Notes: generated by a model not told the origin, from the sequence alone. 37,329 bases of DNA from Planctomycetota bacterium (GCA_003553185.1 PUPC01000132.1:1-37329); one strand, 5' to 3'. Positions 508-18,799 are shown, counted from the first letter of the stretch. Program-made: numbers and translations.

Positions 508-3500
508 TCATCCCTTTTTCATGCAACAGCTTTTGTATTTCTTGCCACTGCCACAAGGGCAGGGATCATTCCGTCCGGGCTCGTCGGCAGCCCGCACCGG
601 TCGCCTCACGCCGCGCGATTTGCCCCCCGCTCCGGCGGCCTGTTTCTCGGCTTCCGCCTGTTCGTAGGCGCTCACCGAACTGTGGACGAGGTTGAGGTCT
701 TCTTCCTCCTCTTCGACTTCGGTGCCCAGTTCGACCCGCACCTTGAGCAGCATGTCGCTGACCTCCTCATGGATGCTGTCGACCATCGCCTCGAACGCCT
801 CGTAGCCCTCCTTCTTGTAGGCGATCTTGGGGTCGATCTGGGCGTAGCCGCGCATCCCGATCCCGCTCTTGAGATGGTCCATCAACTCCAGGTGGTCCTT
901 CCAGCGGGAGTCGATCGCCTGGAGGATCAGGACGCGAGCCGCCCAATGGAGCTGCCTTCTCCCCATCTCGCGGGTTCGCTTTTCGAGGGCGACGAACGCC
1001 CGTTCTTCGATCAGGTCGCGGACTTGCGTCGCTGGCAGCTTGCTCAGCTCGAACGGGTCCACGCCGAGTCCGAACTTGCGGTTGATCTTATCGCCGAGCC
1101 CGGCGAAGTTACGGCCCTCGTCGTTCAGGTCGGAATGCAGGAAGATCCCGCCGACGTGCCGGGCCGCGTCCACAGCCACCGCCTGCGGGGAGCGTTCCTT
1201 GTATCCGGCCATGGCCGCCTCAACAAATACATCGAGGATGTCGGCGTTCACCGATTCCAGGAGTTCGTAGACATCGAGGTATCCGTCGAGGTCCGAATGC
1301 TTGAGCCAATCTTGGAAGGCCTCGGCGTACCACGTGTCGGGCAGGGTCTGCGGTGGGAGGAAGCAGTCGATGGCGGCGGCAATCACGTCTGTGACGATTC
1401 TCGACGGCTGCTTGCGGGCCAGCGATTTCTGTGCCCGCTCGCACACCAGATGAGTAAGTGTTCGCTCGTCGATATCCATCGTCTCCTGCATTTGTGCGGC
1501 GGGCACCGAGATATGCAGTTTCGAGTTGACCCACCGTGCGAGCGGTTCGAGAGCGATCTCCTCGGTCCCTACGGAGGTGGCAAAGTAGGCGGCCATCGCA
1601 TCGGCGATCAGCCGATCGATCACTTCGGGCTGGTCCCATCCTTCCGCCTCGACCTCCTTGGTCAAGTGCTCGATGAGAGTCTCCTTCGCCTCGCTTCGTT
1701 TGCTATCCACCTTCTTGGAGAGGGCACTGTCGAGCTTGATGGGCGAGGAAGCAAAGCTGAACCGGCCGCGCGACCACGCCGCAAGATGTTCGTAAGAGGG
1801 GTCCTCCGCAAACGCTTCGCTTGTGAGGAACTCTTCCACCGAAGACCGAACACAGCGCCTGGCGAAGCCCAGGGCGTCTTCCTCGGGCAACTCGAGCACC
1901 TGGCTGCCGAAAAGCACAGGGAGTTCCTGCCGGGTGAGAGCGAGCCACTGCTCTTTGGTGATGTGCAGACCGAGCCGTTCCGCCCAGTTGACCAGCGGCT
2001 CGAAGTTGCGTTCCTCCGGGGCGTCCTCGGCAGTGAGATAGAGGCCGACCGAGCTGTCGATCACCTCGTGCAGCATTCGGGCGATGATTTCGTCCAGGCC
2101 GCTGCAATAGATGTTCGGAGCTTTGCTCTCATCGATCGCGTGGGCAACCTTCTCGATCATGTCTTCGCCGGGGAGTTTGCTCAACTCGAACCCGTCGATC
2201 CGTATTCCGAAGTCATCTCGGAGGCGGCGTGCCAGGCCGTCGAAATCTCTGCCATTCGGCTTAAGCGTCTCGGTAACCGCGTTGAAGATGGCGGGATAGT
2301 GCCAGTAGAGGGCGACTCCTTCCGGCTCGTCCAGTTGCTCTGCTTTGCTTGCCGCGAGTTCATCAGCCACCTGGTTGGCGGCCTCATCGGCGATCTCCTC
2401 GAATTCGGTCGGTGAAATCCGAACGCCGAACCGACACTCGACCCATAACGAAAGGCGCATCGCCGACGGGCGGCGACGAAAGAACTCGGAATCGACGTAA
2501 AGCCGGACGGTACGGGTAACCAGTGTGTCGATGACCTGACCGGCCGGCATCTCGCCGAGCCCTTCGGTCAGTCGCTCGGCCACCAGGGGTTCGATCTTCT
2601 CCGGTCGCCCCAACAGCCCGGGCCATTCGGCGCCGTCCACCCGGCAGGGCAGGTCACCAATCCATTCCTTGAAGGTGTCGTAGTCCCACGAGTCAGCCCT
2701 CAGGACCGGCAGATCTGCATGAAGGCCGCGACGGGCCCAGTCACGTACCAAGTCCTTCGTTTCGGCCGGTTCGACCGCTTCTGAGAGCTTTGCGATCAGC
2801 AGTTGGGCGAACAGGTCGTCCCAGTCAACCCGGCTGTCGAAACCGAGCCGCTTGAACCCTGTTCGTTGTTCTTCGCGGGTGCCGCGGCGGGCATTTTTCA
2901 GGGGACCGACGACCTCGGTTACGGCCTGTTTTGCCCGTGCCTCGATCTCCTCCGGTTTAGGTCGTCCGTTTGCTGCGGCTTGTTCGGCGGCGTTTTCGCT
3001 GAATATTCGCAGTGTCCCGGCCCGCCATACATCGGGCTCGACAGCGACGCCTGCCGCTGCCCGGACGGCCGACGCCGCCGGCTGGAACGAGCGCTCGAGT
3101 TCTATTTCCTCGCCCCGCAGCCACTCGGGGTCGATGAAATCGTTAATGACCTCGCGGGCAATCTCGTCGGCTGGCCGTTCACGGAACGCCTCAAGTACTG
3201 CCTGCCGCTCGCTGTACACCAATTTCCGCTGCTCGTTCATCACTTCGTCATATTCGAGGACCTGCTTTCTGTAATTGAAGTTCTGCTCCTCGACTTTCTT
3301 CTGGGCCCGCTCGATTGCCCGGCTGACCATACCCGACTCGATCTCCTGGCCGTCGCTCAGCCCGGTTTTCTGCATAAACCCGCGGACCCAGTCGCCCATA
3401 AAGATCCGCATCAGGTCGTCTTCAAGGGAGAGGAAGAAGCGGGATGAGCCGGGATCGCCCTGTCGGCCCGCCCGACCGCGAAGCTGGTTGTCGATCCGGC

Positions 3501-5466
3501 GGGACTCATGGCGCTCTGTCCCGACGATGTGCAGCCCGCCGAGTTCGACGATGTTCTTATGATCGGCCTCGGCCTGGTCTTCCAGTTCGCTCAGACGTGC
3601 GAGCAGCTTGGCCCCGAGTTCCGGTTCGAGATCGATGCCCAATTGGCCGGCGATGCGGTGTATGTTTTCACCCGGCTGCAGATTCGGGTCCCACACCGCC
3701 CGTTCGCCCGGAGGAAGGCCCGGCAAGACGATCTGGGCGGGTTCGTCCGGCGGCGATTCTGTGAACCGTTTGGCATATCGGAAGACGTTTATCAGGTCGC
3801 GCGATTCGGTTTCCGTGCGATGATGCCGGACCTCGAGTTCCCCCTGAAGAGCGAGGGTCGGATTGCCGCCGAGCACGATGTCGGTACCTCGCCCGGCCAT
3901 GTTGGTGGCGATGGTGACGGCACCGGGTTCGCCCGCCTGGGCGACGACCAGCGACTCTTTCTTGTGGTATTTTGCGTTGAGGACATCGTGCTTGATGCCC
4001 CGACGCTTGAGCCGTTCGGACAGCATCTCGGAGCGCTCGACGGAGATGGTTCCGACCAGCACCGGTCGGCCAAGCTGATGAATCCGAGCGATCTCCTCGA
4101 TGATCGCCTCGACCTTCTCCTTGTCGGTCGCGTAGATGATGTCGGGGTGGTTCTGTCGGCGCAGTGGCCTGTTGGGCGGGATCGGGATGACCTCAAGGTC
4201 GTAGATCTTGTTGAACTCGCCCGCCTCGGTCATCGCCGTCCCGGTCATGCCGGAGAGCTTGTTGTAGAGCCGGAAGAAGTTCTGGAAGGTAATCGTGGCC
4301 AGTGTCTGGTTTTCTTCCTGAACCTGCAGGTTTTCCTTGGCCTCCACCGCCTGGTGCAGCCCGTCACTCCACCGGCGTCCCGGCATCAGCCGGCCGGTGA
4401 ACTGATCGACGATGATGACCTGCCCCTCGCGAACCACATACTCCTTGTCCCGTTGATAGAGTTCCTTGGCCTTCAGGGCGTTGTCCATGAAATGCGGCCA
4501 CTCGATGTTCTTGCCGGTATAGAAGTCGGTAACACCGCACAGCTTCTGTGCGGTCAAAATTCCTTCCTCGGTGAGGACCACGGAGCGCTCTTTTTCCTTG
4601 ACCTCGTAGTGGTCGCCCTTGCGAAGCCGTTGTGCGGCCCGGTTGGCCACGTAGTATTTGTCCGTCGCCCCTTCGCCGGCTCCCGATATGATTAGCGGTG
4701 TGCGTGCTTCGTCGATGAGAACGCTGTCCACCTCGTCGATAATCGCGTAGTGCAACTCGCGCTGGGCTTGGTCCTCCGCCCTCAGTTTCATGTTGTCCCG
4801 AAGGTAATCGAAGCCGAACTCGTTGTTGGTGCCGTACACGATGTCGCACGCATAGACCGGGCCGCGTTCACGCGGGTCCATATCGGACTGGATGGCTCCG
4901 ACCGACAGGCCGAGGAACTCGTAGACCGGGCTCATCCAGGCCGCATCGCGCCGGGCGAGATAGTCGTTGACCGTAACCACGTGCACGCTCTTTCCGGTGA
5001 GTGCGTTCAGGTATGCGGGAAGCGTGGCGACCAGCGTCTTGCCTTCGCCGGTGATCATCTCGGCGATCATACCGCGGTGGAGAACAATGCCGCCGAGGAG
5101 CTGGACATCATAGTGGCGCTTCGGATAGGGGTGGCCCTCGACCCGTCGTGCGGCTTCGCGGACCACGGCGAACGCCTCGACCAGAAGGTCATCGAGTGTC
5201 TCGCCGTCGGCATACCGATTGCGAAACTCGCCCGTCTTGGACGCCAACTGCTCGTCCGACAGCTCCATTAACTCCGGTTCGAGGGCATTGATGGCGTCGA
5301 TGGTTGGCTGCATCTTGGCGAGGGTTCGTTCGACGGCGGTGCCGCCGAGGACGAGTCGGAACACCGAGTCGAGAAAACGGCCGAAGTAGTTCGGCACCGT
5401 CTCCGCCAGGGAACGAAGCTTCTCTAATAAGGAACTGTGCGGTATTCCTGTCGGCATCTCACTCAT
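508..5466 (-). CDS. secA: Preprotein translocase ATPase SecA, unusually long (1652 aa)
   Basis: MITGEGKTL Walker [83 protein letters not shown]-terminal [18 protein letters not shown] zinc motif. Confidence 0.97.
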
Positions 5467-5891
5467 ATCGACAATAACCTCGATTCCGAAGCGGCATCCG
5501 AGAAAGCAGCCGCAGGTGTTCTTCGGTTGAAACTCGTTTCGTATTGCGCTGCGTCCCGCTTCTCGAGCCGGGAAGCCGCGTCATAACAACATTTTGCTCG
5601 GGCTGGATGATCGGTTCGACGATGATGAACCGGCAACGCCACACATAGCCCTCATATCGCCCTAAACAGGCGAATTCGTCACCAAAATTAGCATTTTATA
5701 TGATATCAGAACCCCGCAGATCGATCAAACCGAGTTAATGCATGCCGGATTGCAAGGACAGGGCGGTGCGACGGGCCGTGTCAGTTCGATTATCGGCAGG
5801 CAGGGGCCGGCGATCACGAGGCGGTCGGCGAGTTCTTTGAACCGGCTGGCAATGGGGACCCTGTTTTCGAGCGAGTGATGGATGCGGCGGT

Positions 5892-7391
5892 TTATCCGCC
5901 CGTCCACCGCAGCACGGTCGAACCCCAGGCGAGCCCTCCGCCGAACGCGACGAGCACCACCAGGTCGCCTCGTTGGATCAGGCCCTTGCGGTTCGCTTCG
6001 TCGAGGGTGATGGCTACGGACGCCCCCGATGTGTTGCCGTAGCGGTCGAGGGTCGTGTAGGTCTTTGACATAGGAATGCCGAGGGCGTCCATCCCGAACT
6101 TGATGATGTTGATGTTCGCCTGGTGTGCGACGAGGAAGTCGATATCGTCCACGGTCAAGTTCGCCCGTTCGAGTGCGGTCCGCACCGCTCGCGGGAACGC
6201 TCGAGTGGCAAACTCCCAGACGTGTTTCGGCTTCATCTGGAAGTAGTGCAGGCCGTGCTGCACCGTTTCGATGCTGGCGGGCATCCGCGTACCCCCGGCC
6301 GGTGCGGTTATCGTCTCGTACCCGGTCCCGTCGGTCTGCACGTATGAGGTGAGGATGCCGTGTTCGCCGGCCGATGCTCGGCCGAGCACCATCGCTCCGG
6401 CCCCGTCGCCGAAATAGATGCACGAGTTGCGATCGGTAAAATCGAGCATCCGGGAATAGACCTCCGAGCCGATAACTAGGGCGGACTCGGCCGAACCGTC
6501 CTCGATGTACCGGCGGACGATATCAATGGCGTAGACCGTCCCCGTGCACATCACGGGCAGATCGAAGGCCATGGCGTTCGGGGCGCCGAGTTCCCCCTGG
6601 ACGATACACGCGGTGCCGGGAAAGATGCGGTCCGGGACCGTGGTGGCCAGGACGATCATATCGAGTTCCTCGGCGCGAACGTCCGCCACGTCGAGCGCCC
6701 GCCGGGCGGCCTGGATGGCGAGGTCCGACGTCGCCTCATCGTCGGCCGCGAACCGCCGCTCGGCCACGCCGACCCGCTTGCGAATCCACTCGTCGCTGCT
6801 GTTGATATTCGCGATCGAGATCACGTCGTTGTTGGTAAGTACCCGCGCGGGGAGATAGGACCCGGTGCCCAGGATCGTCGCGGCATATCGTTTGCCCGCC
6901 CCGGTTTCTTTCGACGGGCCGGCTGTAGGTTCGGCCGATTCGACGAATCGTCGGACATCCTCCTCACGGATCACTCCCTGCTGTTTCACCTGATCGAGTT
7001 CGACACCGAGTTCGGCTGCCAGACGGCGGGCTTTCAGTGTCGCCCGCGCCCGCGGTGGCCGGGCCTCCTCGGGCGAAGCGGTCGATTTCGGAGCTGCCAT
7101 GTCCTCTGGTTCCGGCAGGGGCGAGTCGGGCCGTTCGGTGACAAACCCGAGCGCCTGGCCAACCGCGCACTCCTGGCCCGGCTGTATCCGGTGCCGGAGG
7201 AAGCCCGCGGCTCCGGCTTCCAAATCGACGGCGGCCTTGTTGGTCTCGACAGTGCAGACGACATCGTCCGGGCCGACCTTCTCTCCGTCATCGATGGCCC
7301 ATCCCACCACGATGGCGGTATCTTCGTTCACGTTCAGGCGGGGCAGGTGTATGGCGTGAATTTGCGCGTCTGGTCGTTGTTTGTTGCTCAT
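5892..7391 (-). CDS. fabH: Fusion of lipoyl domain, peripheral subunit-binding domain and 3-oxoacyl-ACP synthase III (FabH) (499 aa)
   Basis: ATG at 7391 overlaps the E1 beta stop (ATGA). Lipoyl motif VETNKA; Ala/Pro linker; PSBD-like ATLKARRLAAELGVELDQV...G.I.EEDV. FabH domain starts ILGTGSYLP, with triad AFDLPVMC(TG), VAHQAN, YGNTSGAS and AFGGGLAWG. Confidence 0.92.
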   Translation of the reverse strand: MSNKQRPDAQIHAIHLPRLNVNEDTAIVVGWAIDDGEKVGPDDVVCTVETNKAAVDLEAGAAGFLRHRIQPGQECAVGQALGFVTERPDSPLPEPEDMAAPKSTASPEEARPPRARATLKARRLAAELGVELDQVKQQGVIREEDVRRFVESAEPTAGPSKETGAGKRYAATILGTGSYLPARVLTNNDVISIANINSSDEWIRKRVGVAERRFAADDEATSDLAIQAARRALDVADVRAEELDMIVLATTVPDRIFPGTACIVQGELGAPNAMAFDLPVMCTGTVYAIDIVRRYIEDGSAESALVIGSEVYSRMLDFTDRNSCIYFGDGAGAMVLGRASAGEHGILTSYVQTDGTGYETITAPAGGTRMPASIETVQHGLHYFQMKPKHVWEFATRAFPRAVRTALERANLTVDDIDFLVAHQANINIIKFGMDALGIPMSKTYTTLDRYGNTSGASVAITLDEANRKGLIQRGDLVVLVAFGGGLAWGSTVLRWTGG

Positions 7392-8392
7392 TGCAGCATC
7401 ACTTTCTCGACAGCTCCTCTGACGGTTTCCACGCCGGGCAGGACGTGGTCTTCGAGTGGCCGGGCGGTGGGCAGCGGCAGGTCCCGCCCGGTAACACGGA
7501 CAGGTCTGGCCACAAGCCGGTCGCCCCATCGTTCTACGACGCGTGCCACCACCTCTGCCGCCCAGCCCCAGGACCGAGGGCCTTCTTCAGCCACGATAAG
7601 CCGACCGGTCCGGGCAACGGACTCGCCGATCAGGGCGGTGTCCAGCGGGGCGATTTCCGATGGGGCTAGAATCTCGCAGGCCACCTCGTCCTCGTTGAAC
7701 GTGGCTGTCATCGCCTCCTCGACGATCGGGAGCATCGGACCGTAGGTCACCACGGTTACGTTCGGCTGCTCGCCCGCCGCGTTATTGAGGACGGCAGCCG
7801 GATATGGCGGATGAGTGTGGGCGATGTCGTAGTGCTCGCTGACCGTGGCCTGCTCCGCGGCATAGAGCAGTTTGCCCTCGATAAAAACCACCGGGTTGGG
7901 GTCGTCGATCGCCGCCCCGATCAGTGCCGCTGCATCGTGGCGAGGCGTGGGGGCGACGATACGGAGCCCGGGGGTGGAGAGCAGCATCCGCTCCAACGAC
8001 TGGCTGTGGGTGGGACCGTAGCCGCGCCGCCCGCCCATCGGCGCCCGGACGACCAGGGGGACGGAGACGGCCCCGTTGTACATCCAACTGAACTTGGCGG
8101 CGTGGTTGATGAGCTGGTCGGCGGCGAGGGCGATGAAATCGCCGAACATCATCTCGACGACGGGTCGCAGGCCGCGAAGAGCCATCCCGGTCGTCACGGC
8201 CACCGTCCCCGCCTCGCTGATCGGGACATTGATCAGGCGGCCGGGAAATTCCGAGGACAGGCCGCGGGTGATCCGAAACGCACCGCCGTACGGGTCGCAG
8301 ATGTCTTCTCCGAGGAGATACACCGTGGGATCGTCGGCCAGCTTTTTTCGGAGCCCGGCTGCAATCGCCCGCCCGACGGTCAGCTTTTCCAT
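7388..8392 (-). CDS. 2-oxoacid dehydrogenase-type E1 component, beta subunit (334 aa)
   Basis: LLGEDI.DPYGGAF, PISEAG...G.A..GLRPVVEMMFGDF...AADQ..N, GPTHSQS, NPVVFIE.K; start ATG 8392 after GGGAAGGGA, overlapping the E1 alpha stop. Confidence 0.93.
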   Translation of the reverse strand: MEKLTVGRAIAAGLRKKLADDPTVYLLGEDICDPYGGAFRITRGLSSEFPGRLINVPISEAGTVAVTTGMALRGLRPVVEMMFGDFIALAADQLINHAAKFSWMYNGAVSVPLVVRAPMGGRRGYGPTHSQSLERMLLSTPGLRIVAPTPRHDAAALIGAAIDDPNPVVFIEGKLLYAAEQATVSEHYDIAHTHPPYPAAVLNNAAGEQPNVTVVTYGPMLPIVEEAMTATFNEDEVACEILAPSEIAPLDTALIGESVARTGRLIVAEEGPRSWGWAAEVVARVVERWGDRLVARPVRVTGRDLPLPTARPLEDHVLPGVETVRGAVEKVMLQ

Positions 8393-9333
8393 AATCCCTT
8401 CCCGATATCGCCCAAGTCCTGGACCGGTGCCTTCCTGGCAGCGGCGATGGCCCGCTCGATCCGCGCCTGGCAACGCCCTTCGATCTCCCGCCGGTCGGCC
8501 CCGTCGAGAGCTCCGGCCAGCAGAGCGAGCGGATCGCGTTTCCGCCACTCATCTTCCTCTTCCCGGGTCCGGTAAGCCCGTTCGTCGTTGATGCTGTGGC
8601 CGCAGAATCGGTAGGTCCGCAGTTCGAGCAGATAGGGGCGGCAGTTCTCGCGCACGTACTCGACGGCTTTCTCGGACGCTTCGATGATCTCGAACACATC
8701 TTCGGACTCGACGGTCGCCGACTCGATGCCCAGGGCATCTGCCCTCGGGACGATTCCGCCGGCCAGCGTATCCCGCACGTGGGTGCTCATCGCATAGAGG
8801 TTGTTTTCTAGCGCATAGAGGATCGGGGCGTTCCACAGAGAGGCCATGTTCATCGCCTCGTGCAGGATTCCCTGGGCGAGTGCCCCGTCACCGATGAACG
8901 AACACACGATATTGCCGGACTCTTGCTGCTTCTCGGCCAGTGCCATACCGGTCCCCACCGCACCCATTCCGCCGGTGATCCCGTTTGTGTAGAAGTTCTC
9001 GGCATAGAGGTGCTGGGAGCCGCCACGCCCGGCACACACCCCGGTTGCCCGGCCCATGATCTCGGCCATCAGGCCTTTGACATCGCCTGTCCATGCGAGG
9101 AAATGCCCATGACCACGGTGGGTACTGGTCACCACGTCGGTCGGTTCCAGCGCGGTCACCACGCCGACCGCTGTGGCTTCCTGACCGATGCAGGGGTGGG
9201 TGGTCCCGAACAGTTCTCCCCGGGTAAACAGTTCGGCGATGCGTTCCTCGAAGGCGCGGATGAGGTACATCTGTTCGTAGATGTCGAGCTTAGCGCATGT
9301 GGCCACAAGCCGCTCCAGAGCCGCCGGGTGCAT
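8380..9333 (-). CDS. 2-oxoacid dehydrogenase-type E1 component, alpha subunit, ThDP-dependent (317 aa)
   Basis: GQEA, THRGHGH, GRGGSQH, ThDP motif GDGA...ENN, TYRFCGHS. Confidence 0.94.
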   Translation of the reverse strand: MHPAALERLVATCAKLDIYEQMYLIRAFEERIAELFTRGELFGTTHPCIGQEATAVGVVTALEPTDVVTSTHRGHGHFLAWTGDVKGLMAEIMGRATGVCAGRGGSQHLYAENFYTNGITGGMGAVGTGMALAEKQQESGNIVCSFIGDGALAQGILHEAMNMASLWNAPILYALENNLYAMSTHVRDTLAGGIVPRADALGIESATVESEDVFEIIEASEKAVEYVRENCRPYLLELRTYRFCGHSINDERAYRTREEEDEWRKRDPLALLAGALDGADRREIEGRCQARIERAIAAARKAPVQDLGDIGKGLWKS

Positions 9334-9348
9334 TCGATTCAGATTATG

Positions 9349-9377
9349 ATTCTATGCCCGCTTCGGTTCTATTGCAA
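9349..9377 (-). promoter_or_regulatory. sigma70-type promoter of the E1 alpha/E1 beta/lipoyl-FabH operon
   Basis: TTGCAA (9377-9372), N17, TAGAAT (9354-9349), only 15 nt upstream of the ATG at 9333. Confidence 0.6.
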
Positions 9378-9474
9378 GCACAGCGGTTCCGAGGTCGCCG
9401 TCCGGCACGCTTCCGATAGGAAATATGACCGGAATGGCTGGGGCTGAAGTCGTTTTGCGGGTGGGGCAGGGGGG

Positions 9475-9909
9475 TCAGACAATCGTTGAGTCGTCATCGC
9501 CTGCGGACTCGCCGGGCTCCTTGCCGACGTGTTCGAGCACCTCGTCCTCGACAAAGATCGGTGCTTCGAGGCGGACGGCGAGTGCCACAGCATCGGACGG
9601 GCGGGAGTCGACCTCGACGACGCTCCCGTTCACCTGGAGGATGAGCTTTGCGTAGAAGGTGTTGTTCCGCAGGCCGCTGACGATAATGCGGTCGAGCCGG
9701 GCGCCCAGTTCGGTGATGACGTTTGAGAGGAGGTCGTGGGTCAAAGGCCTCCGGGTGGGGATGTCGCGGACCTTACGGTCGATGGCGGCGGCCTCCACGA
9801 TCCCGATCAGGATGGGGAATATCCGGGTGCCTTGTTTTTCGCGGAGCCAGATCACCTGATAGTCGCTCGTCTCGGTGATCAGGATTCTCGCCAGTTCCAT
9901 TTCGACCAT
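9475..9909 (-). CDS. Bifunctional nuclease family protein (DUF151/BFN) (144 aa)
   Basis: FPILIGIVEAAAI, RPLTHDLL, FYAKL, VDSRPSDAVALAVR...PIFV. Confidence 0.9.
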   Translation of the reverse strand: MVEMELARILITETSDYQVIWLREKQGTRIFPILIGIVEAAAIDRKVRDIPTRRPLTHDLLSNVITELGARLDRIIVSGLRNNTFYAKLILQVNGSVVEVDSRPSDAVALAVRLEAPIFVEDEVLEHVGKEPGESAGDDDSTIV

Positions 9910-9950
9910 TGGTTTTCCCCAATTGGATTGTTCGTTACCGCCTATCTGCC

Positions 9951-9978
9951 ATTCTAATTTCCGGGGCGCCAATGTCAA
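9951..9978 (-). promoter_or_regulatory. sigma70-type promoter for the DUF151 gene
   Basis: TTGACA (9978-9973), N16, TAGAAT (9956-9951). Confidence 0.65.
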
Positions 9979-10044
9979 CTTGTTCGTCTGCAGATATTCT
10001 TTGTTTGAAGGATTCCGGCGTTCCCTGGCAGTACGACGGACAAC

Positions 10045-11334
10045 TCATTTCAGTGCCGTCGTGATCGCCAGCTTGTTCGCACCGTCAACAAACAGGATCG
10101 GTTCGCCTTCGCGAGCCCAGCGCGATACCAGGCCCGTTGCGTTGGAACAGGCGATCAGCCCGGTCCCATCAAGCGTGGAAGAGGGAAGGGCGGTCGTCAC
10201 GTAAAGACCGGTAAGGCGCAACAGCATCTCGTGGAACAGGACGGCCTTGTGGCCGAACATGACATATTTCGCCCGGACGGTCCTTGCATAGGAGGCGGCA
10301 TCGCCTTTCAGCGGAGCGAAAAAGTTCTCGGCCGTCCGCTCGGACGCCGCCACGCCGTTGCGGCATTCGGCCAGCCACAACACCTCGGCCCCGTCGGCCA
10401 CACACTCCTTCGTCAACTCCAGCGAGCGCTGGGCGGTATAGAGTGTCTCGTCGTGCGGATATCCCCCGCAACTGATGACCGCCCTGCGATACGGTCGGTC
10501 CACGGCCACGGTCAAAGCGGCGTCTACCTGTCGTATCCCCTCTGCCACCACTTGCTCCAGGGGGCCGAACCGGGCCCAACGGGTGTTTCCGTCATCGCCG
10601 ACCGACGCCAGGGCAAAGACAGGTCGTTTGTCCGCCACAATCCGGGCGGCCTCCAACTGATTGCGAGCGACCGGATTGTCCCGGCGGGATGGGTCCGGGT
10701 GCAGCGGATGCCGGCAGGCGGCAGCCCCGGGCTGAAGAGTCAAAGCGTGGTCCTGCTCGACGGTTTCGTATCGGGCCAGACCGGGGAGGAGGAACTTGGC
10801 GGGGTTCGAGTATCCGGCGAAGTAATGCGGCTTCATCTCCGACACGATGCAGATGACGTCGGCCGACTCGATCCATCGATTGAGTACGACCGAAACGTCG
10901 AAGCTCGTCCGGTCCAGGTCAACCGACGGGCTCGACCGGCAGTCGTGGGCCCCGGCATCCACCAGCGGGAGCCGCTCCCGGCTGCACACATCCTCGACCA
11001 TCTTCAGGATGTGACAGTTGTCGGGGGTGTCCGCCCGGTGTGTCCCGGTGGAGATCAGGACTCTTATCGACCGGGCCGCTCGAAGCACCTGTGCCAATGC
11101 AGACAGTCCGGCCCGGTTCGGCTGATCGCGAGTGCCGTCGGCCAGGAGCACCAGCACGTCCTTCCCGGCAAAACCAGCATCGGCCTCTGCACTTGCCCGT
11201 TCAACAGCTTTTGCCAGGGACAATCGAGCGGGCTCCCCCTTGTCCAGTCGCGGCGGACGGACGACCTGTCCCACACACTCGTCTGGGACGTCAAACGCTA
11301 TCCGTCCGTCGCCATAGCCAAGCGAAATCCGCAT
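10045..11334 (-). CDS. LarA-superfamily (nickel-pincer lactate racemase-like) protein (429 aa)
   Basis: N-terminal L.YG; DGTR; STGTHR; PHYFAGYSNPAK.LLPG; SCGGYP.D..LY; AEC..G; start chosen after GAGGCAGAGAG. Confidence 0.82.
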   Translation of the reverse strand: MRISLGYGDGRIAFDVPDECVGQVVRPPRLDKGEPARLSLAKAVERASAEADAGFAGKDVLVLLADGTRDQPNRAGLSALAQVLRAARSIRVLISTGTHRADTPDNCHILKMVEDVCSRERLPLVDAGAHDCRSSPSVDLDRTSFDVSVVLNRWIESADVICIVSEMKPHYFAGYSNPAKFLLPGLARYETVEQDHALTLQPGAAACRHPLHPDPSRRDNPVARNQLEAARIVADKRPVFALASVGDDGNTRWARFGPLEQVVAEGIRQVDAALTVAVDRPYRRAVISCGGYPHDETLYTAQRSLELTKECVADGAEVLWLAECRNGVAASERTAENFFAPLKGDAASYARTVRAKYVMFGHKAVLFHEMLLRLTGLYVTTALPSSTLDGTGLIACSNATGLVSRWAREGEPILFVDGANKLAITTALK

Positions 11335-11464
11335 CTCTCTGCCTCTCGCCCCGTAATCCTGAACTTCTATTCTACGACAAACTCGCAACCTTTGCAGTCA
11401 ATCGTTGGTCGGAAGAAAACAGACCGGGGAAACCAGAAGGCGGAAGAAACTCGGTGATTCGTCC

Positions 11465-12421: not shown

Positions 12422-15400
12422 TCAGTCGTACAACTCGGGCCAGGCCGCGCGTTCTTCGTCCTCGGGGAACCGAGTGAGCACATCCATCTCGACCACGGCG
12501 TTTTCGCTGGGCGGAGCTTCGTAGCGTTCGACGTTCTGGCGGACCGCGCGGAGTGCGTCACCGGGTTCAAGTGCCGACGTTGAGGGGATGACGGCGAGAG
12601 CGAAGAAGGTGAAGTCCGGGCGTGAAAAGGCAAAGCTGGTGATACGCCCGATCGGAACGCTGTCCTGGTCGATGACCGCGTGCCCCGGTCGAACGCTTCG
12701 CCGCCCCTGCCCGCGTACCCTGATAACCTTCTGGTTCGCACTGCTTACGCGGTCGATGTACGCCCGTCGTCCGATGAAAAACGGGACGTGGAACCTGGCG
12801 ATGAAACCGTAGCCCGCCTCGGTGATCGAGAGGCGGCACGGCCCCTCGAGCTCGTGCCCGAACAGCGGAAATCCCGCCTCGGTCCGTGTCGAATCGCGTG
12901 CGCCCAATCCCGCCGGGCGCACGCCGAGCGGCTCACCGGCCGCGAGCAAGGCGTCCCAGAGTTCGACGCAACGTGCCGGATGCACATAAAGCTCGAACCC
13001 GACCTCTTCGCCGGTGTAGCCGGTGGCCGCGAGCAAGCACTCGATCCCGGCCAGCCAGACCCGGATGAACCGATTCTGCTCCAGGCGCGGGATGGCGAAC
13101 CGATCTTTGGCATCCGCGGCGAGCCGACAGAGCACTGCGGCCGACTTCGGACCTTGCAGGGCGAGTCCGACGAGCCCATCCTCGCGCAGATTACGGATTT
13201 CGACGGGGGCTTCGATCTGCCTGGCGGGCAGCTCGCCGTCGATGGCCACCTCCCGCGAGTTGACCGCGTTCATCCAGTCCCAGTCCCGCTCGGCATTCGC
13301 GGCGTTTGCGACGAGCACAAAACGGTCGCGCTCCAACCGGTATATGTACAGGTCATCGATGGCGGTTCCGTCGGGATCAAGCATGTAGGTGTATTGGGCA
13401 TGACCGGGTTCAATACGCGAGACGCAGTTGGCGAGCACCGTGTCGAGGAAGCCGACGGCGTTCCGGCCGCGGATCTCGAACAGACTCATATGCGATATGT
13501 CGAACAGCCCGGCGGCGGTTCGGACCGCCGCGTGCTCGGCGAACACGCCGTCCGGATACTGCACGGGCATCTCCCACCCGGCGAACGGGGCCATCTTTGC
13601 GCCGAGGTCCTTGTGGGCCTGGTTCAGGAGTGTGCGGCGGACGGGCCTATCGGCCTCCTTGTATTCATAGGCCGGCTTCGGATCCGGTTGTGCCCGGGCG
13701 TACTCAGCGGTCTGTCCGATGAAATACGGTTTGGTCACATCCGCCGTCGGTTCCGGCAATTGATCCGGCAGGCAGTCCATGAGGCCTTCCGGCAGCGGCT
13801 CGATCACCGTCGGACCATCGACCTTGGCGTACAGGTCTTGCTCGTCGAACAACAGATATCCATCCGAGAGTGCGGCCACGTGTTCAACGACCGCACGGCC
13901 TTTGTCCTGACTGGTCAGCAATGCGAATTGTTCTTCCCGTCCGCACAGTCCCAGGTTGACGACGGCGACGTCGTCGATGACCGCCCCGTCGCTGCGCAGC
14001 ATCCTGCCTACCGCCGCTTCGCCGACCTCCAGGCACGCCGTGCGGCAGGTCAGCATTTGGCCCAACGCGAGCGAGACCTTGTCGCCGCGCAGAAGCCAGG
14101 CGGCACGGCCCAGATGGACCGGCGGCTCGCAAGAAGAAGCGGGCGTTTTCGGCTCGGGAGGGTAGGGCAGGGCGCTTACGATTTTTCGGACGCGCTCTGC
14201 GGCCGCTGGCAGGACGTCCTCCGGGACGCGCCCGCGGCAGCGCTCCTCGCCGGCGGGCACCCAAACCCGGGTGGTGTGGACGTTGCTGAGGACCGTCTTT
14301 ATGATCGACGCCAGCTCGGCGATCTGCGCACGGTTGATCCCCCGCTGTGTCGCCCAGGGCATACCCAGCCGAATCCCGCTCGCCTTGCCGCCCGTCTCGT
14401 CCCCCGGCAGGACGTTCTTGTTGCAGACGATTCCAGCGATCTCGAGCAGCCGGGATGCGATCTCGCCGTCGATCGGGACGGTGGGGTTCGGATGGTCGTC
14501 GAAACGCTTCAGGTCAATGAGCAGCAGGTGTGTGTCTGTGCCGCCGTATTCGAGCGTGAACCCCTCGGCTTCGAGTCGTTCGGCGAAGTACGCCGTGTTG
14601 TCGAGCACGGTCTGCTGCAGTTCGACGAACCGGTCGCGTTCCTGCTCGATGAGTTCGAACCGTCGGGCGATAGCGGCGATAGAATGCAGGTGCGGGCCGC
14701 CCTGCAGCCCGGGGAAAACACCCGCCTTGATCTTTTTGGCCAGCGTGGGATAGGTGGTCAAAATCACGGAGCCACGCGGGCCGAAGAGTGTCTTGTGTGT
14801 GGTGAACGTGACCGCGTGAACGTGGGGGAGGGGATTGTTGAGCAGGCCGGCCGCCACCATCCCCGCCAAGTGTGCGATGTCGGCCAGCACGAACGCCCCC
14901 ACTTCGTCGGCAACAGCTCGCAGTTCCGCCCAGTCGAAGTCCCATGGGTACGACGACGCCCCGCCGATGATCAGGCGCGGCTTATGCTCGCGAGCCAGCT
15001 CAGCGATGCGGTTATAATCGAGCCGGCGAGTCTCGGGGTCAATGCCGTAAGGGACCACGTTAAATGTTTTGCCTGAGTAGTTGAATTCGCTGCCGTGTGT
15101 CAGGTGCCCGCCGTGCGCGAGGTCCAGACTGAGTATGGTGTCCCCGTGTTCGAGGACCGCCTCATAGACGGCGGTATTCGCGGGCGAGCCGGAAAGTGCC
15201 TGGACGCAGACGTGGATGCCCTCGGGGGGCGGACTGCCCTCGAGTTTTGCGAAACACTCGGCGATGAACTTGTGCGCGAGCAGTTCGGCTCGATTCGCGT
15301 TGACGCAGCCGCGATAGTATCGTCCGTCGGCGAGCCGGGTCTGCCAACTCGCAAACCGAGCGGGGTCAGTCGCGCTGTCCCTCGGGTCGTGTAAAAGCGG

Positions 15401-15571
15401 GGGCTCCGGCTGCCCCTCGGCGTAGATGTTCGAGAAGGCCGAGGATTCGATCTCGGCGGCCCGCGGGTCGCAGATGCTTTCGGAGGGGATGAGCACCAGT
15501 TTCTGCCATTGCCGGCGGCGCTCGGCCTCGACAAGTTCGACGATCTCAGATGGCGGTTGAGGTTGGGACAT
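12422..15571 (-). CDS. glyA-gcvT: Serine hydroxymethyltransferase (GlyA) fused to glycine-cleavage aminomethyltransferase (GcvT), with an intervening GcvT-like segment (1049 aa)
   Basis: SHMT: LIPSE, YAEG, RYY, GGHLTHG, DIAH, TTHKTL.GPRG, FPGLQGGP, NKN, SGIRLG. GcvT: RRT.L...H..LGAKM.PFAGWEMPVQY, EH.AVR..AGLFDISHM, IDDL, ALQGP, TGYTGE..GFE, GLGARDS.R.EAG. ATG 15571 follows GGAG. Confidence 0.93.
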   Translation of the reverse strand: MSQPQPPSEIVELVEAERRRQWQKLVLIPSESICDPRAAEIESSAFSNIYAEGQPEPPLLHDPRDSATDPARFASWQTRLADGRYYRGCVNANRAELLAHKFIAECFAKLEGSPPPEGIHVCVQALSGSPANTAVYEAVLEHGDTILSLDLAHGGHLTHGSEFNYSGKTFNVVPYGIDPETRRLDYNRIAELAREHKPRLIIGGASSYPWDFDWAELRAVADEVGAFVLADIAHLAGMVAAGLLNNPLPHVHAVTFTTHKTLFGPRGSVILTTYPTLAKKIKAGVFPGLQGGPHLHSIAAIARRFELIEQERDRFVELQQTVLDNTAYFAERLEAEGFTLEYGGTDTHLLLIDLKRFDDHPNPTVPIDGEIASRLLEIAGIVCNKNVLPGDETGGKASGIRLGMPWATQRGINRAQIAELASIIKTVLSNVHTTRVWVPAGEERCRGRVPEDVLPAAAERVRKIVSALPYPPEPKTPASSCEPPVHLGRAAWLLRGDKVSLALGQMLTCRTACLEVGEAAVGRMLRSDGAVIDDVAVVNLGLCGREEQFALLTSQDKGRAVVEHVAALSDGYLLFDEQDLYAKVDGPTVIEPLPEGLMDCLPDQLPEPTADVTKPYFIGQTAEYARAQPDPKPAYEYKEADRPVRRTLLNQAHKDLGAKMAPFAGWEMPVQYPDGVFAEHAAVRTAAGLFDISHMSLFEIRGRNAVGFLDTVLANCVSRIEPGHAQYTYMLDPDGTAIDDLYIYRLERDRFVLVANAANAERDWDWMNAVNSREVAIDGELPARQIEAPVEIRNLREDGLVGLALQGPKSAAVLCRLAADAKDRFAIPRLEQNRFIRVWLAGIECLLAATGYTGEEVGFELYVHPARCVELWDALLAAGEPLGVRPAGLGARDSTRTEAGFPLFGHELEGPCRLSITEAGYGFIARFHVPFFIGRRAYIDRVSSANQKVIRVRGQGRRSVRPGHAVIDQDSVPIGRITSFAFSRPDFTFFALAVIPSTSALEPGDALRAVRQNVERYEAPPSENAVVEMDVLTRFPEDEERAAWPELYD

Positions 15572-15597
15572 AGTCGGCTCCGCAGTCAGAGGGGTTT

Positions 15598-17037
15598 TTA
15601 CAGCAACGCCAGATCGAGCTCGCGTGCGGCGCCGTACTCGTCGATGCGAGTGACGGGGGCATTTACCGGTGCGCGGCGCAGGGCCTCCGGGTCGGATTCG
15701 GCCAGTCGGGCCAGTTCGATCATCGCGTCGCAGAAGGCGTCGAGCGTCTCCTTGCTCTCGGTCTCGGTCGGCTCGATCATCATCGCCTCTTTCACGATGA
15801 GCGGGAAATAAACGGTCGGCGGATGGAACCCGCGGTCTATCAGCCCCTTCGCGATATCGAGGGCGGAGACATCGTTCTTCCGAACGGCGGACAGCACGCA
15901 CTCGTGCATGCATTGTTCGCCGAAAGGGACCTCATAGTAGTCGCGGAGTCGGGCGAGCACATAGTTGGCGTTGAGCACCGCGTGCTCGGCCACCTCGATC
16001 AGCCCCTCGCGGCCGAGGGCCAGGATGTATGCATAAGCCCTGACCAGCACGGCGAAATTGCCGTAGAACGGGGCGATATAGCCAATCGTTCGCTTATTGT
16101 CATATCGGAGGCGATAGGTGTTGTCCGGCTCCTTCTCGACTGTGGAGATGGGCAGATATTCGACCAGGTGTTCCGCCACGCCGACCGGTCCGGCGCCCGG
16201 TCCGCCCCCGCCGTGTGGTGTGCCGAACGTTTTGTGGAGGTTCAGGTGTACCACGTCGAACCCGAGGTCGCCCGGCCGGCTCTTTCCCAGTATCGCATTC
16301 AGGTTTGCTCCATCGTAGTACATCAGGCCACCCGCCTCGTGGGTGAGGTCGGCGATCTCTTTCACGTGCGGGTTGAACAGGCCCAGCGTGTTCGGGCAGG
16401 TGAGCATCACGGCGGCGACCCGGTCGTCGAGCGCGTCGCGGAACGCATCGAGGCCCATGAAGCCGTTCTCGTCGGAGGGGACCGGCACCACCTTGAATCC
16501 GCCGATGGCCGCGCTCGCCGGGTTCGTACCGTGGGCGGAATCGGGCACAATGATGGTGGTCTTCTTGTCGCCGTGGGCACGGTGGAAGGCGGCGATCAGC
16601 ATGATCCCCGTCAACTCGCCGTGCGAACCGGCCAGCGGCTGCATTGTGAACCGGGCCATACCGGTGATTTCGCAGAGATGTCGTTCGAGCTCGTGGATGA
16701 CTCGCAGTGCCCCCTGGGTGAGCGTCTCGCCGCCGGGAAGCTGGGGGAGCAGGGGATGTAATTCGCGAAAGCCGTCATAGTCCCCGACCGCCTCGGCCAT
16801 CTTGGGGTTGTATTTCATCGTGCAGGACCCGAGGGGGTAGAACCCGCAATCGACTCCGAAGTTTCGGCGCGACAGCTCGGTGAAATGTCGGACGACCTCG
16901 AGCTCCGAGACCTCGGGCAGGGCGGCATCCTCGGAGCGGATCAGCGAGTTGGGAAGGTCGTGTTCCACGGGCACGTCGCATTCGGGTACGCTCGCCCCGG
17001 TACGCCCCGGTGCCCCTTTTTCGAAGATGAGTTTCAC
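15598..17037 (-). CDS. gcvPB: Glycine dehydrogenase (decarboxylating) subunit 2
   Basis: YPLGSCTMKYNPK, SAHGTNPASA, PLP-lysine motif HLNLHKTFGTPHGGGGPG, IEPTETE; GTG start overlaps the gcvPA stop. Confidence 0.96.
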   Translation of the reverse strand: MKLIFEKGAPGRTGASVPECDVPVEHDLPNSLIRSEDAALPEVSELEVVRHFTELSRRNFGVDCGFYPLGSCTMKYNPKMAEAVGDYDGFRELHPLLPQLPGGETLTQGALRVIHELERHLCEITGMARFTMQPLAGSHGELTGIMLIAAFHRAHGDKKTTIIVPDSAHGTNPASAAIGGFKVVPVPSDENGFMGLDAFRDALDDRVAAVMLTCPNTLGLFNPHVKEIADLTHEAGGLMYYDGANLNAILGKSRPGDLGFDVVHLNLHKTFGTPHGGGGPGAGPVGVAEHLVEYLPISTVEKEPDNTYRLRYDNKRTIGYIAPFYGNFAVLVRAYAYILALGREGLIEVAEHAVLNANYVLARLRDYYEVPFGEQCMHECVLSAVRKNDVSALDIAKGLIDRGFHPPTVYFPLIVKEAMMIEPTETESKETLDAFCDAMIELARLAESDPEALRRAPVNAPVTRIDEYGAARELDLALL

Positions 17038-18395
17038 AGTGCGGCCTCCAGTTCGTCGGCCAGTTTGTCAATCTCCGCCCTGGTCCGCTTCTCGGTCACG
17101 GCGACCAGCAGGCAGTCGCGCAACGAGGGAAAATAAGCACCGAGCGGAAAGCCCGCCGCAATTCCATGCTTGAGCAGCGGGGCGACCACCTCGGCCGTGT
17201 CATCCACGGGCAGTCGCACGGCGAACTCGTTGAACGTGGGGGCATCCGACAGCAGCTCGACTCCGGGAATTCCCGTGAGGCGTCGCCGGGCATACCGGGC
17301 GGTCGCCGCACAGGTCGTCGCCACCTGTTTCAGGCCGTGTTTGCCGAGGAGCGACAGGTAGATCACGGCCCGGAGGGCGCAGAGGGCTTCGTTCGAGCAG
17401 ATGTTTGAGGTGGCCTTCTCGCGGCGAATATGCTGCTCGCGGGCCTGGAGCGTCATTACGAACCCACGGCGGCCCTCCGTATCTCGAGCCGCGCCGATGA
17501 TCCTGCCCGGCATCTTCCGCACGTGCTTCTTTTTCGCCGCCATAAAGCCGAGGTAGGGGCCTCCGAACGAAAGCGGCAGCCCCAAGCTCTGCCCTTCGCC
17601 GGTCACGATGTCGAACCCCATTTCGCCGGGCGATTTCAGCAGCCCCAGCGAGATGGGATAAACCGAGGCGACGGCCAGGGCCCCGGAATTGTGCGCCGCC
17701 TCGACCAGGTCGGAAAAGTCGTCGACCACGCCGAAGAAATTGGGGTTCTGAAAGATCACGGCGGCGGTCTGATCGTCCAGCGCGTCCAACAGCCGCACGC
17801 GGTCGGTCCTGTTGATCGCGGGTTCGATAGTCTCCAGCTCGATGTCGAGTTCGCGCACATACGACTCGATCATCTTTCGGTAGATGGGGCTTACGCACCC
17901 GTCGATCACCACTTTGCTCCGGCGGGTGACTCGGGCGGCCATCATCATCGCCTCGTACAGGCCCGTGCCGCCATCGTAGAGCGACGCGTTCGCCACTTCC
18001 AGTCCGGTCAGACGGCAGACGGCCGACTGATATTCGTACATCGCCTGGAGGAAACCCTGTGACATTTCGGCCTGGTACGGGGTGTAGGCGGTGTAAAACT
18101 CTGACCGGCCGGCGAGGGCATCGACCGCCGACGGGATGAAGTGGTCGTAGAACCCGCCGCCCAGGAACGTGACCACATCGGTCGCGTTCGCGTCGGCGAA
18201 CTCCCGGAGCCGATTCCGCACGGCCATCTCGGAGCGCCCGGGCGGAAGATCGAAAAACGGCGTGGATCCGTCGGGATCATCCACGTCGGTTCGGAGGGCG
18301 GACGGGATAACCGAGAACAGGTCAGCGATGGAGCTGGCACCGATCGTTTCGAGCATCTCCCGACGCTCGGCGTCGGTATGGGGGACATAGGACAT
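17034..18395 (-). CDS. gcvPA: Glycine dehydrogenase (decarboxylating) subunit 1
   Basis: MSYVPHT, EFYTAYTPYQAEMSQG, NASLYDG, GGPYLG, TLQAREQHIRREKATSNICSN. Confidence 0.96.
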   Translation of the reverse strand: MSYVPHTDAERREMLETIGASSIADLFSVIPSALRTDVDDPDGSTPFFDLPPGRSEMAVRNRLREFADANATDVVTFLGGGFYDHFIPSAVDALAGRSEFYTAYTPYQAEMSQGFLQAMYEYQSAVCRLTGLEVANASLYDGGTGLYEAMMMAARVTRRSKVVIDGCVSPIYRKMIESYVRELDIELETIEPAINRTDRVRLLDALDDQTAAVIFQNPNFFGVVDDFSDLVEAAHNSGALAVASVYPISLGLLKSPGEMGFDIVTGEGQSLGLPLSFGGPYLGFMAAKKKHVRKMPGRIIGAARDTEGRRGFVMTLQAREQHIRREKATSNICSNEALCALRAVIYLSLLGKHGLKQVATTCAATARYARRRLTGIPGVELLSDAPTFNEFAVRLPVDDTAEVVAPLLKHGIAAGFPLGAYFPSLRDCLLVAVTEKRTRAEIDKLADELEAAL

Positions 18396-18400
18396 GTCGG

Positions 18401-18799
18401 TCAGGAGCTTTCCGTTTTAAGCAGCGCCCGGTATTGATCCGGCGAGAGCAGTTCAGCGAGGTCCGCATCGGGAACGTCGGCGAGCTTACACAGCCAGCCG
18501 TCGTGATAAGGGCTCTCGTTCACACGGTTCGGTTCTTCTTCGAGTAGGGCGTTGACTTCAATCACCGTACCGCTGACAGGGGCATAGATATCGCTCGCCG
18601 CCTTGAGCGATTCGACAACGGCGAACTCCTCTCCCTGCACGACATCAGCGTCCACGGCGGGCAGTTCAACGAACGTTACCTCGCCTAGGGCGTCCTGGGC
18701 GTAGTCGGTAATCCCGAGCGTTGCTGTGTTGCCATTGACACGAATCCACTCGTGCTCGGCCGTATAAAGAATTTCGTCGGGGACATCCACATCAGTCAT
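18401..18799 (-). CDS. gcvH: Glycine cleavage system H protein (132 aa)
   Basis: YT.EHEW, GITDYAQ..LG, lipoyl motif VESLKAAS, N.SPY..GW; RBS GGAGGAGG 6 nt upstream of ATG 18799. Confidence 0.96.
   Translation of the reverse strand: MTDVDVPDEILYTAEHEWIRVNGNTATLGITDYAQDALGEVTFVELPAVDADVVQGEEFAVVESLKAASDIYAPVSGTVIEVNALLEEEPNRVNESPYHDGWLCKLADVPDADLAELLSPDQYRALLKTESS

Follow-up and report, generated by a model that had tools for sequence, protein, structure and literature searches.

How does a 2-oxoacid dehydrogenase dispose of its acyl group when the acyltransferase core of its E2 component has been replaced by a ketosynthase? The question is raised by a 37,329-nucleotide stretch of DNA from a Planctomycetota bacterium (GCA_003553185.1, PUPC01000132.1:1-37329; hereafter the window, with all positions counted from its first letter), in which an open reading frame (ORF) listing places three tightly packed genes on the minus strand at 9333..5892. 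They encode the E1 alpha and E1 beta subunits of a 2-oxoacid dehydrogenase and a third protein in which an E2-type lipoyl domain and a peripheral subunit-binding domain (PSBD) are fused to a ketoacyl synthase III (KAS III, or FabH) domain. The architecture of this fusion is genuine, conserved and very rare, and the lipoyl arm may deliver its acyl group to the fused ketosynthase directly. The start, stop and key codons of all three genes were read directly from the DNA, and the elements on which the argument depends are as follows.

8380..9333, minus strand: E1 alpha subunit, binding thiamine diphosphate (ThDP), ATG start, 317 amino acids (Pfam E1_dh, 4.9e-65)
7388..8392, minus strand: E1 beta subunit, ATG start, 334 amino acids (Pfam Transket_pyr, 3.4e-31, and Transketolase_C, 3.3e-20)
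5892..7391, minus strand: lipoyl-PSBD-KAS III fusion P0001, ATG start, 499 amino acids (ORF, Pfam, NCBIfam and codon reading)
7128..7364, minus strand: lipoyl domain of the fusion, residues 10-88 (Pfam Biotin_lipoyl; hhalign against E2 lipoyl domains)
7236..7238, minus strand: codon AAG of the lipoyl-attachment residue Lys52, the beta-turn Lys of the motif ETNKA (VETNKAAVDLEA)
6942..7049, minus strand: PSBD, residues about 115-150, between Pro/Ala/Glu-rich linkers (Pfam E3_binding; hhalign)
5901..6884, minus strand: KAS III (FabH) domain, residues 170-497 (TIGR00747; PDB FabH matches to E 2.5e-77)
6546..6548, minus strand: codon TGC of the active-site residue Cys282, aligned with C112 of E. 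coli FabH
6123..6125, minus strand: codon CAC of His423, aligned with H244 of E. coli FabH
6033..6035, minus strand: codon AAC of Asn453, aligned with N274 of E. coli FabH

The N-terminal part of the fusion is that of an E2 protein. When the fusion is compared, profile against profile, with 20 ordinary E2 proteins (hhalign), its residues 10-153 match the E2 lipoyl domain and PSBD at 99.7% probability (E 5.9e-26), and the alignment ends there. Biotin_lipoyl passes its Pfam cut-off (5.2e-7, 29.8 bits against 22.1) and E3_binding stays under it (6.5e-4, 20.3 bits against 23.7); the PSBD is regarded as real because of the hhalign result, in which residues of about 112-151 match the E2 PSBD except for 3 residues missing from its loop. 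Of the three parts expected of an E2, the lipoyl domain and PSBD are thus present and the C-terminal 2-oxoacid_dh core is absent, with neither the PF00198 domain nor a DHRxxDG motif found in the fusion by Pfam or by reading of the sequence; the ordinary E2 of the same genome matches PF00198 with 263-265 bits. In place of that core stands a KAS III domain that is recognized by Pfam (ACP_syn_III, 2e-24; ACP_syn_III_C, 1.8e-33) and passes two curated FabH models, TIGR00747 (347.3 bits against a cut-off of 292.1) and NF006829 (367.4 against 249). Lys52, Cys282, His423 and Asn453 are invariant in 20 of 20 aligned fused proteins, whose identities range over 63-95%. The initial annotation of this locus had described an E2-type N terminus lacking the E2 core and joined to a complete FabH domain with an intact Cys-His-Asn triad; the first half of that description agrees with the Pfam and hhalign results and the missing DHRxxDG motif, the second with the NCBIfam cut-offs and the alignment to E. 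coli FabH, and every coordinate it gave, including those of the Lys, Cys, His and Asn codons, proved correct when the codons were read. A biotin-carrier reading of the N-terminal domain was also considered and was rejected, as the domain aligns to E2 lipoyl domains together with the PSBD and its gene follows E1 genes.

The rarity of this architecture is apparent from searches of quite different scope. In a collection of 5.8 billion proteins, 19 clusters among the matches listed cover at least 90% of the fusion (62-95% identical, 471-527 amino acids), and the remaining 101 matches listed are unfused KAS III proteins of 318-367 amino acids that are at most 55% identical; this search covered one length class, with lipoyl-PSBD proteins of fewer than 274 amino acids and longer fusions lying outside it. 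An exhaustive profile search of 1.84 billion representatives, made without a length limit, gave one full-length protein among its best 150 matches (923.6 bits) and a second-best representative in which the KAS III part alone is matched (397.7 bits), so that within those 150 matches the architecture amounts to one 50%-identity cluster. With the N-terminal 170 residues as the query, 16 fused proteins, 22 ordinary E2 proteins, one lipoyl-PSBD-SDR/epimerase protein and one unrelated protein were retrieved, and no other lipoyl-KAS III protein was among them. Of 401 genomes of the phylum, 7 contain the full-length fusion, and all 7 belong to one Planctomycetota family with 10 genomes in the set; the count in the remaining 391 is 0. 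The three family genomes that lack it are 81, 87 and 91% complete. No description of a lipoyl-KAS III architecture was found in the literature searched, which held few subscription journals. One cluster among the representatives, one family and no paper fit the original impression that the architecture had not been characterized, and they speak against its being common, which the initial annotation had named as a ground for refutation.

Within that family, the fusion occurs together with its E1. The E1 alpha-E1 beta-fusion triad recurs at six further loci in metagenome-assembled genomes (MAGs) of Planctomycetota, where the fusion is 65-95% identical and the flanks differ, making the triad the sole conserved unit across the 6 loci. 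Seven of the 10 family genomes have the fusion and both cognate E1 genes (E1 alpha at least 64% and E1 beta at least 67% identical), and the other 3 have none of them. A conserved three-gene unit with a dedicated E1 is supported by these six loci and by the seven-genome co-occurrence. Since the operon contains no E2 core, no acceptor other than the Lys of the fusion is encoded with this E1. Elsewhere in the phylum, the E1 pairs that come nearest reach 44-52% identity, and among nine such loci examined, the pair is followed by an ordinary E2 in four, by a lipoyl-acetyltransferase fusion in one (G067) and, in the roughly 1.5 kb of downstream DNA at hand, by nothing recognizable in four. The ordinary E2 in four of the nine loci, behind E1 pairs of same-class relatives that are 44-49% identical, places the fusion in the E2 slot.

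What this E1 delivers can be approached from its own relatives and from the acyl pocket of the ketosynthase. The alpha and beta genes lie side by side as in heterotetrameric E1 enzymes, and a GDG-27 residues-NN ThDP motif is visible in the E1 alpha translation; identity as a pyruvate dehydrogenase (PDH) E1 at the equivalog level is not reached, with E1 alpha scoring 296.6 bits against TIGR03182 (PDH_E1_alph_y, cut-off 393.85) and the E1 match to NF006667 at 228.5 against a cut-off of 321. The nearest solved structure to E1 alpha is human PDH E1 alpha (E 6e-51), and mitochondrial-type PDH E1 alpha gives 176 bits compared with about 97-105 for branched-chain enzymes. Relatives of E1 alpha, among them proteins of Omnitrophota and Saganbacteria at 50-56% identity, carry the source names pyruvate or acetoin dehydrogenase alpha subunit, and the PDB relatives of E1 beta are the E1 beta subunits of the Thermus 2-oxoacid dehydrogenase and of PDH. 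By these comparisons the E1 is closest to the PDH/acetoin enzymes, which would make an acetyl or other short acyl group likely; the best guess from such similarities is that the substrate would be pyruvate and the group carried acetyl. The acyl pocket is consistent with this. At the positions that we take to line that pocket in E. coli FabH (F87, L142, I156, G186 and L205), the fused domain is as bulky or bulkier, with F87 kept, L142, I156 and G186 replaced by Tyr and L205 by Phe, which points to a short acyl primer. The unusual primers first envisaged for this operon find no support in the PDH/acetoin-like E1 alpha or in these bulkier residues, which indicate a short acyl group instead. At one locus (L008:27-1094, plus strand), E1 alpha is directly preceded by a gene for a pyruvate formate-lyase-like glycyl-radical enzyme, a weak hint at pyruvate.

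Further proteins show that a lipoyl domain can be joined to other partners as well. In G067 (L145:405-1460), a lipoyl domain (LETTKATVEVEA) is fused to a hexapeptide sugar acetyltransferase of the NeuD/PglB/VioB type (TIGR03570, 159.6 bits against a cut-off of 160.8), and the gene lies directly behind E1 alpha-E1 beta. This lipoyl-acetyltransferase fusion is found at full length in 3 of the 401 genomes, the other two being G205 (L162:7203-8330) and G253 (L155:239-1261). In the single-contig genome G205 the fusion again stands behind E1 alpha-E1 beta, with a DegT/DnrJ/EryC1 sugar aminotransferase immediately before it and radical SAM genes around it, and the pathway there is probably amino-sugar N-acylation. 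E1 together with the lipoyl-acetyltransferase is apparently a second and undescribed operon type of the form "E1 + lipoyl-X". In another protein, P0145 (504 amino acids), the partner to which the lipoyl domain and PSBD are joined is an NAD-dependent epimerase/SDR domain (Pfam Epimerase, 1.5e-30; E3_binding, 8.5e-11). The E1 alpha-E1 beta-lipoyl-X grammar is common to the present operon and to those of G067 and G205, whereas the partner enzyme and the pathway differ. As the lipoyl-acetyltransferase and SDR fusions are themselves uncharacterized, they serve as parallels rather than precedents. That enzymes normally dependent on acyl-CoA (coenzyme A) have come to occupy the E2 slot at least twice is nonetheless the strongest indirect support for direct delivery from the lipoyl arm, and the acetyltransferase partner also favors acetyl as the group carried.

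In the reading preferred here, to which we give about even weight, E1 would acylate the lipoyl Lys, the KAS III Cys would receive the acyl group straight from the arm, and condensation with a malonyl thioester would follow. E1, of the alpha/beta heterotetramer type, would decarboxylate a small 2-oxoacid, most likely pyruvate, and would then reductively acylate the lipoyl group on Lys52, while the PSBD would keep E1, and in turn the single lipoamide dehydrogenase (E3) of the genome, docked to the fusion. The S-acyl-dihydrolipoyl arm would enter the pantetheine tunnel of KAS III in place of acyl-CoA and transfer its acyl group to Cys282, whereupon His423 and Asn453 would decarboxylate a malonyl thioester, by default malonyl-acyl carrier protein (malonyl-ACP) and possibly malonyl-CoA, and condense it with the acyl-Cys. 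The product would be a 3-oxoacyl thioester, acetoacetyl if the primer is acetyl, and E3 and NAD+ would reoxidize the dihydrolipoyl arm. The chemical steps, the substrate and the carrier of the extender unit are what we infer; the architecture, the catalytic residues, their conservation and the co-occurring E1 are features of the genes themselves. The genome encodes one E3 (508 bits), LipA and one gene of the BPL/LplA/LipB family (the lipoate/biotin ligase family), so that the parts for lipoylating and reoxidizing the arm are present. The co-occurrence with E1 and the parallel lipoyl-acetyltransferase fusion together provide the comparative case for direct acyl hand-over. A tentative extension of the same reasoning is that the lipoyl arm could be a general alternative to CoA as an acyl donor, for KAS III here and for a PglD/NeuD-type acetyltransferase elsewhere, in which case the operon would convert pyruvate and a malonyl thioester to an acetoacetyl thioester without free acetyl-CoA. 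In the genome studied here (G000:C220; L136:904-1218 and 1166-2095, both on the minus strand), a 104-residue stand-alone lipoyl-domain protein adjoins the lipoyl synthase LipA.

Several observations weigh against direct hand-over followed by condensation. The accessible part of one study lists T28, W32, R36, R151 and N247 as CoA-contact residues of E. coli FabH (PMC4606726). Alignment with E. coli FabH shows that the KAS III domain has largely kept these contacts (T28 as S/T198, W32 as W202, R36 as R/K206, R151 as R321 and N247 as N426), and the domain could therefore still bind acyl-CoA or malonyl-CoA. The proposal of the initial annotation that the acyl group bypasses CoA is weakened by this retention. 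The roles in ACP docking that we assign to R249, K214 and K257 are, like those in the acyl pocket, presumed in part. The E. coli-type basic docking patch to which they belong is not found in the fusion, where R249 corresponds to N428, K256/K257 to D435/A436 and K214 to E393; the difference is not decisive, but with these residues changed the malonyl-ACP step is uncertain. R249 and K256 are named as ACP-docking residues of E. coli FabH in the part of PMC8036411 at hand, and the same part describes an A. baumannii KAS III that carries Asn in place of R249 and nevertheless binds ACP via basic residues 210/211; position 210 is an invariant Lys389 in the fused clade. The docking substitutions are, furthermore, common to 76 of the 101 unfused relatives, so that they arose before the fusion did and do not represent adaptation to the lipoyl arm. 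Finally, no ACP or fab genes were found in the operon or in the flanks of the examined loci.

The history of the KAS III domain can be followed beyond these docking residues. The 76 unfused relatives form a subfamily with a residue other than Arg at position 249, Trp213 and Tyr142, and the fused domain has the same features. In a quick maximum-likelihood tree with SH-aLRT support, the 20 fused sequences are monophyletic (support 100) on a long branch and fall with this non-Arg249 subfamily (support 99 for the 53-row group), separately from the FabH of planctomycetes and of E. coli. The substitutions that set the fused clade apart surround the acyl pocket and tunnel (E. coli numbering 81-87, 110-111, 139-141, 155, 186-191 and 209). 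The unfused members of the subfamily (among P0021-P0121) are annotated by their sources as ordinary FabH. A metagenome scan with the subfamily alignment gave mostly canonical FabH linked to plsX/fabD, with Arg249 and F/Y213 in 78 of 80 loci, and no E1 or fab genes were found in the flanks of L033:3149-4129, the sole subfamily-type locus in that scan. A canonical plsX-linked fabH lies on another contig of the genome studied here and is also present in four of five other carriers tested; judged by this gene complement, the fused KAS III is not the housekeeping FabH. In one 93% complete carrier (G304), no FabH other than the fused KAS III exceeds the family cut-off, and, unless this reflects an assembly gap, the fusion may serve bulk fatty-acid initiation there.

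The retained CoA contacts and the lost docking Arg are also compatible with a function in which no condensation takes place. The KAS III domain would simply take over the job of the E2 core, moving the acyl group from the lipoyl arm via Cys282 to CoA or holo-ACP, and the module would be an odd PDH or an acyl-ACP loader. FabH enzymes have an acyl-CoA:ACP transacylase side activity, and the domain stands exactly where relatives of the operon have the E2 core. Such a role is nevertheless unlikely, since His423 and Asn453, which serve decarboxylative condensation, have been kept in every one of the fused sequences, the whole domain scores above the curated FabH cut-off, and the genome already has an ordinary E2.

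That ordinary E2, on contig C12 and with no neighboring E1 genes, is the starting point for another improbable account, in which KAS III is primed by free acyl-CoA and the lipoyl-PSBD part is only a tether that docks it to E1/E3 or a PDH-type complex, close enough to the ordinary E2 for the acyl-CoA formed there to be channeled. The ordinary E2 could in principle use the E1 of this operon, and the conserved contacts to the adenine and pantetheine of CoA would be explained. A tether, however, has no need of an invariant lipoyl Lys in a conserved ETNKA turn, and the parallel lipoyl-acetyltransferase fusions argue for the arm as an acyl donor. The ordinary E2 also has a likelier partner in a fused E1 alpha-beta protein of 791 amino acids in the same genome; such fused E1 proteins of about 790 amino acids are present in 9 of the 10 family genomes, two of the three without the triad among them. 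No AceE-type E1 was found in the MAG.

That the fusion is an artefact or a decaying gene, whether a misassembly, a frameshift joining two genes or a pseudogene, can be set aside as refuted for practical purposes, because full-length fused ORFs exist in 19 protein clusters and in 7 genomes and independent assemblies read through the junction, even though the source is a fragmented MAG (3.19 Mb, 400 contigs, 89.5% complete) and the relative at G076/L010 appears as two tblastn pieces in different frames, a break caused by a run of N inside the KAS III domain and not at the junction. Contigs assembled from the likely source run cover 5800-9368 end to end and show 0 differences, and a 547-nucleotide piece of that run (6786-7332) crosses the junction, reaching from the lipoyl domain to the KAS III domain. 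A 2,986-nucleotide contig from another study, labeled soda lake metagenome, covers 6088-9076 including the junction and differs from the window by 196 substitutions and a single indel, an in-frame 3-nucleotide deletion. A misassembly or frameshift at the junction was among the findings that the initial annotation had named as fatal to its reading; none is seen in the other loci, the source-run contigs or the soda lake contig.

The compactness of the operon extends to its gene boundaries. The end of E1 alpha and the start of E1 beta have 13 nucleotides in common (ATGGAAAAGCTGA), and the start of the fusion shares ATGA with the stop of E1 beta, so that the three overlapping genes reported from the outset are confirmed by the ORF listing and by codon reading. 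Most close relatives of E1 alpha are 308 amino acids long, compared with 317 here, and the true E1 alpha start may thus lie a few codons 3' of 9333. A promoter of its own had also been attributed to the operon, and a promoter-like site is indeed present:

9349..9377, minus strand: promoter-like site 5' of E1 alpha, TTGCAA-17-TAGAAT (consensus scan, 9 of 12 matches; weak evidence)

Four promoter-like sites occur in 5300-10100 compared with 1.1 +/- 1.1 in shuffles, which leaves the evidence for a promoter weak. No Rfam families or tRNAs were found in the window.

Directly downstream of the operon is a very long SecA-like ORF (1652 amino acids, 508-5466, minus strand), which stays next to the operon only in the closest relatives (L005 and L011). 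Upstream lie a protein with a bifunctional-nuclease domain (9475-9978, minus strand) and a LarA-N protein, with the N-terminal domain of lactate racemase (10045-11388, minus strand), a synteny retained only in the 95%-identical relative. Farther along, at 12422-15913 (minus strand), one 1163-residue ORF combines a serine hydroxymethyltransferase (SHMT) domain with a glycine-cleavage T-protein domain, and SHMT-GcvT fusions of this kind are unusual. The ORF is preceded by gcvP subunit 1 and gcvP subunit 2 (15598-17037 and 17034-18395, both minus strand), and upstream of these subunits, at about 18551-18646 (minus strand), is a weak lipoyl-type match that is probably GcvH.

To our knowledge, the acyl group in described 2-oxoacid dehydrogenase complexes always leaves the lipoyl arm via an E2-type acyltransferase, to CoA or, in the quinocarcin (Qnc) system, to an ACP, and we know of no described KAS III enzyme whose primer comes from anything other than an acyl-CoA or acyl-ACP thioester. 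That a lipoyl arm is joined to a ketosynthase, and that the two have stayed with their own E1 across a family, implies that one swinging-arm system hands its load directly to another. Should this prove true, it would be a CoA-independent route of chain initiation and a previously undescribed start for a fatty-acid or polyketide chain, and it would offer metabolic engineering a compact module that takes in a 2-oxoacid and gives out a 3-oxoacyl thioester. Along with the lipoyl-acetyltransferase fusions, it would suggest a wider and unrecognized "E1 + lipoyl-X" class.

Comparison with known systems illustrates how much of this operon is familiar and where it departs from them. The 2-oxoacid dehydrogenase complexes with a heterotetrameric E1 (PDH, acetoin dehydrogenase and branched-chain 2-oxoacid dehydrogenase) share with it the order E1 alpha-E1 beta-third subunit and the lipoyl-linker-PSBD start of that subunit, but they continue with an acyltransferase core that builds a 24- or 60-mer scaffold, where the fusion has KAS III, and their acyl acceptor is CoA, where that of the fusion would be a protein Cys. 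FabH enzymes are dimers, and the assembly formed by the fusion should consequently be small. Among FabH/KAS III enzymes, the fusion is alike in family score, Cys-His-Asn triad and CoA contacts, and it differs in its lipoyl-PSBD arm, in the absence of equivalents of R249/K256/K257/K214 and of fab linkage, and in belonging to a subfamily separate from the plsX-linked FabH of its own genome. The AcoC-type E2 of acetoin dehydrogenase (NCBIfam NF011457) is matched by the lipoyl region of the fusion (E 1.2e-12), over profile positions 2-82 of 372 only; in some bacteria, AcoC has a non-canonical catalytic domain behind its lipoyl arm. In Gram-positive bacteria, a branched-chain 2-oxoacid dehydrogenase and FabH prime fatty acids via free acyl-CoA. 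The logic is the same, in that the acyl group of a decarboxylated 2-oxoacid primes a KAS III, but those are separate enzymes with an E2 core, whereas here a single chain serves as carrier and condensing enzyme, and its operon lacks an E2 core.

A parallel in purpose is the glycolicacyl-unit system of quinocarcin and scleric acid biosynthesis (QncN/QncL/QncM and SclQ1-4). The accessible part of the published account describes QncN, QncL and QncM as a ThDP domain, a lipoyl plus E2-type acyltransferase domain and an ACP, respectively (PMC6335953). The E2-type acyltransferase moves the unit from the lipoyl domain to the dedicated ACP, and that part of the account names no ketosynthase, fused or otherwise, so that the separate KAS-III-like protein attributed to the quinocarcin system in the initial annotation does not match the proteins as described there (PMC6335953). 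What the two systems have in common, as far as the same source goes, is that a ThDP-dependent E1-like enzyme loads a lipoyl domain for the benefit of a biosynthetic line rather than of CoA (PMC6335953).

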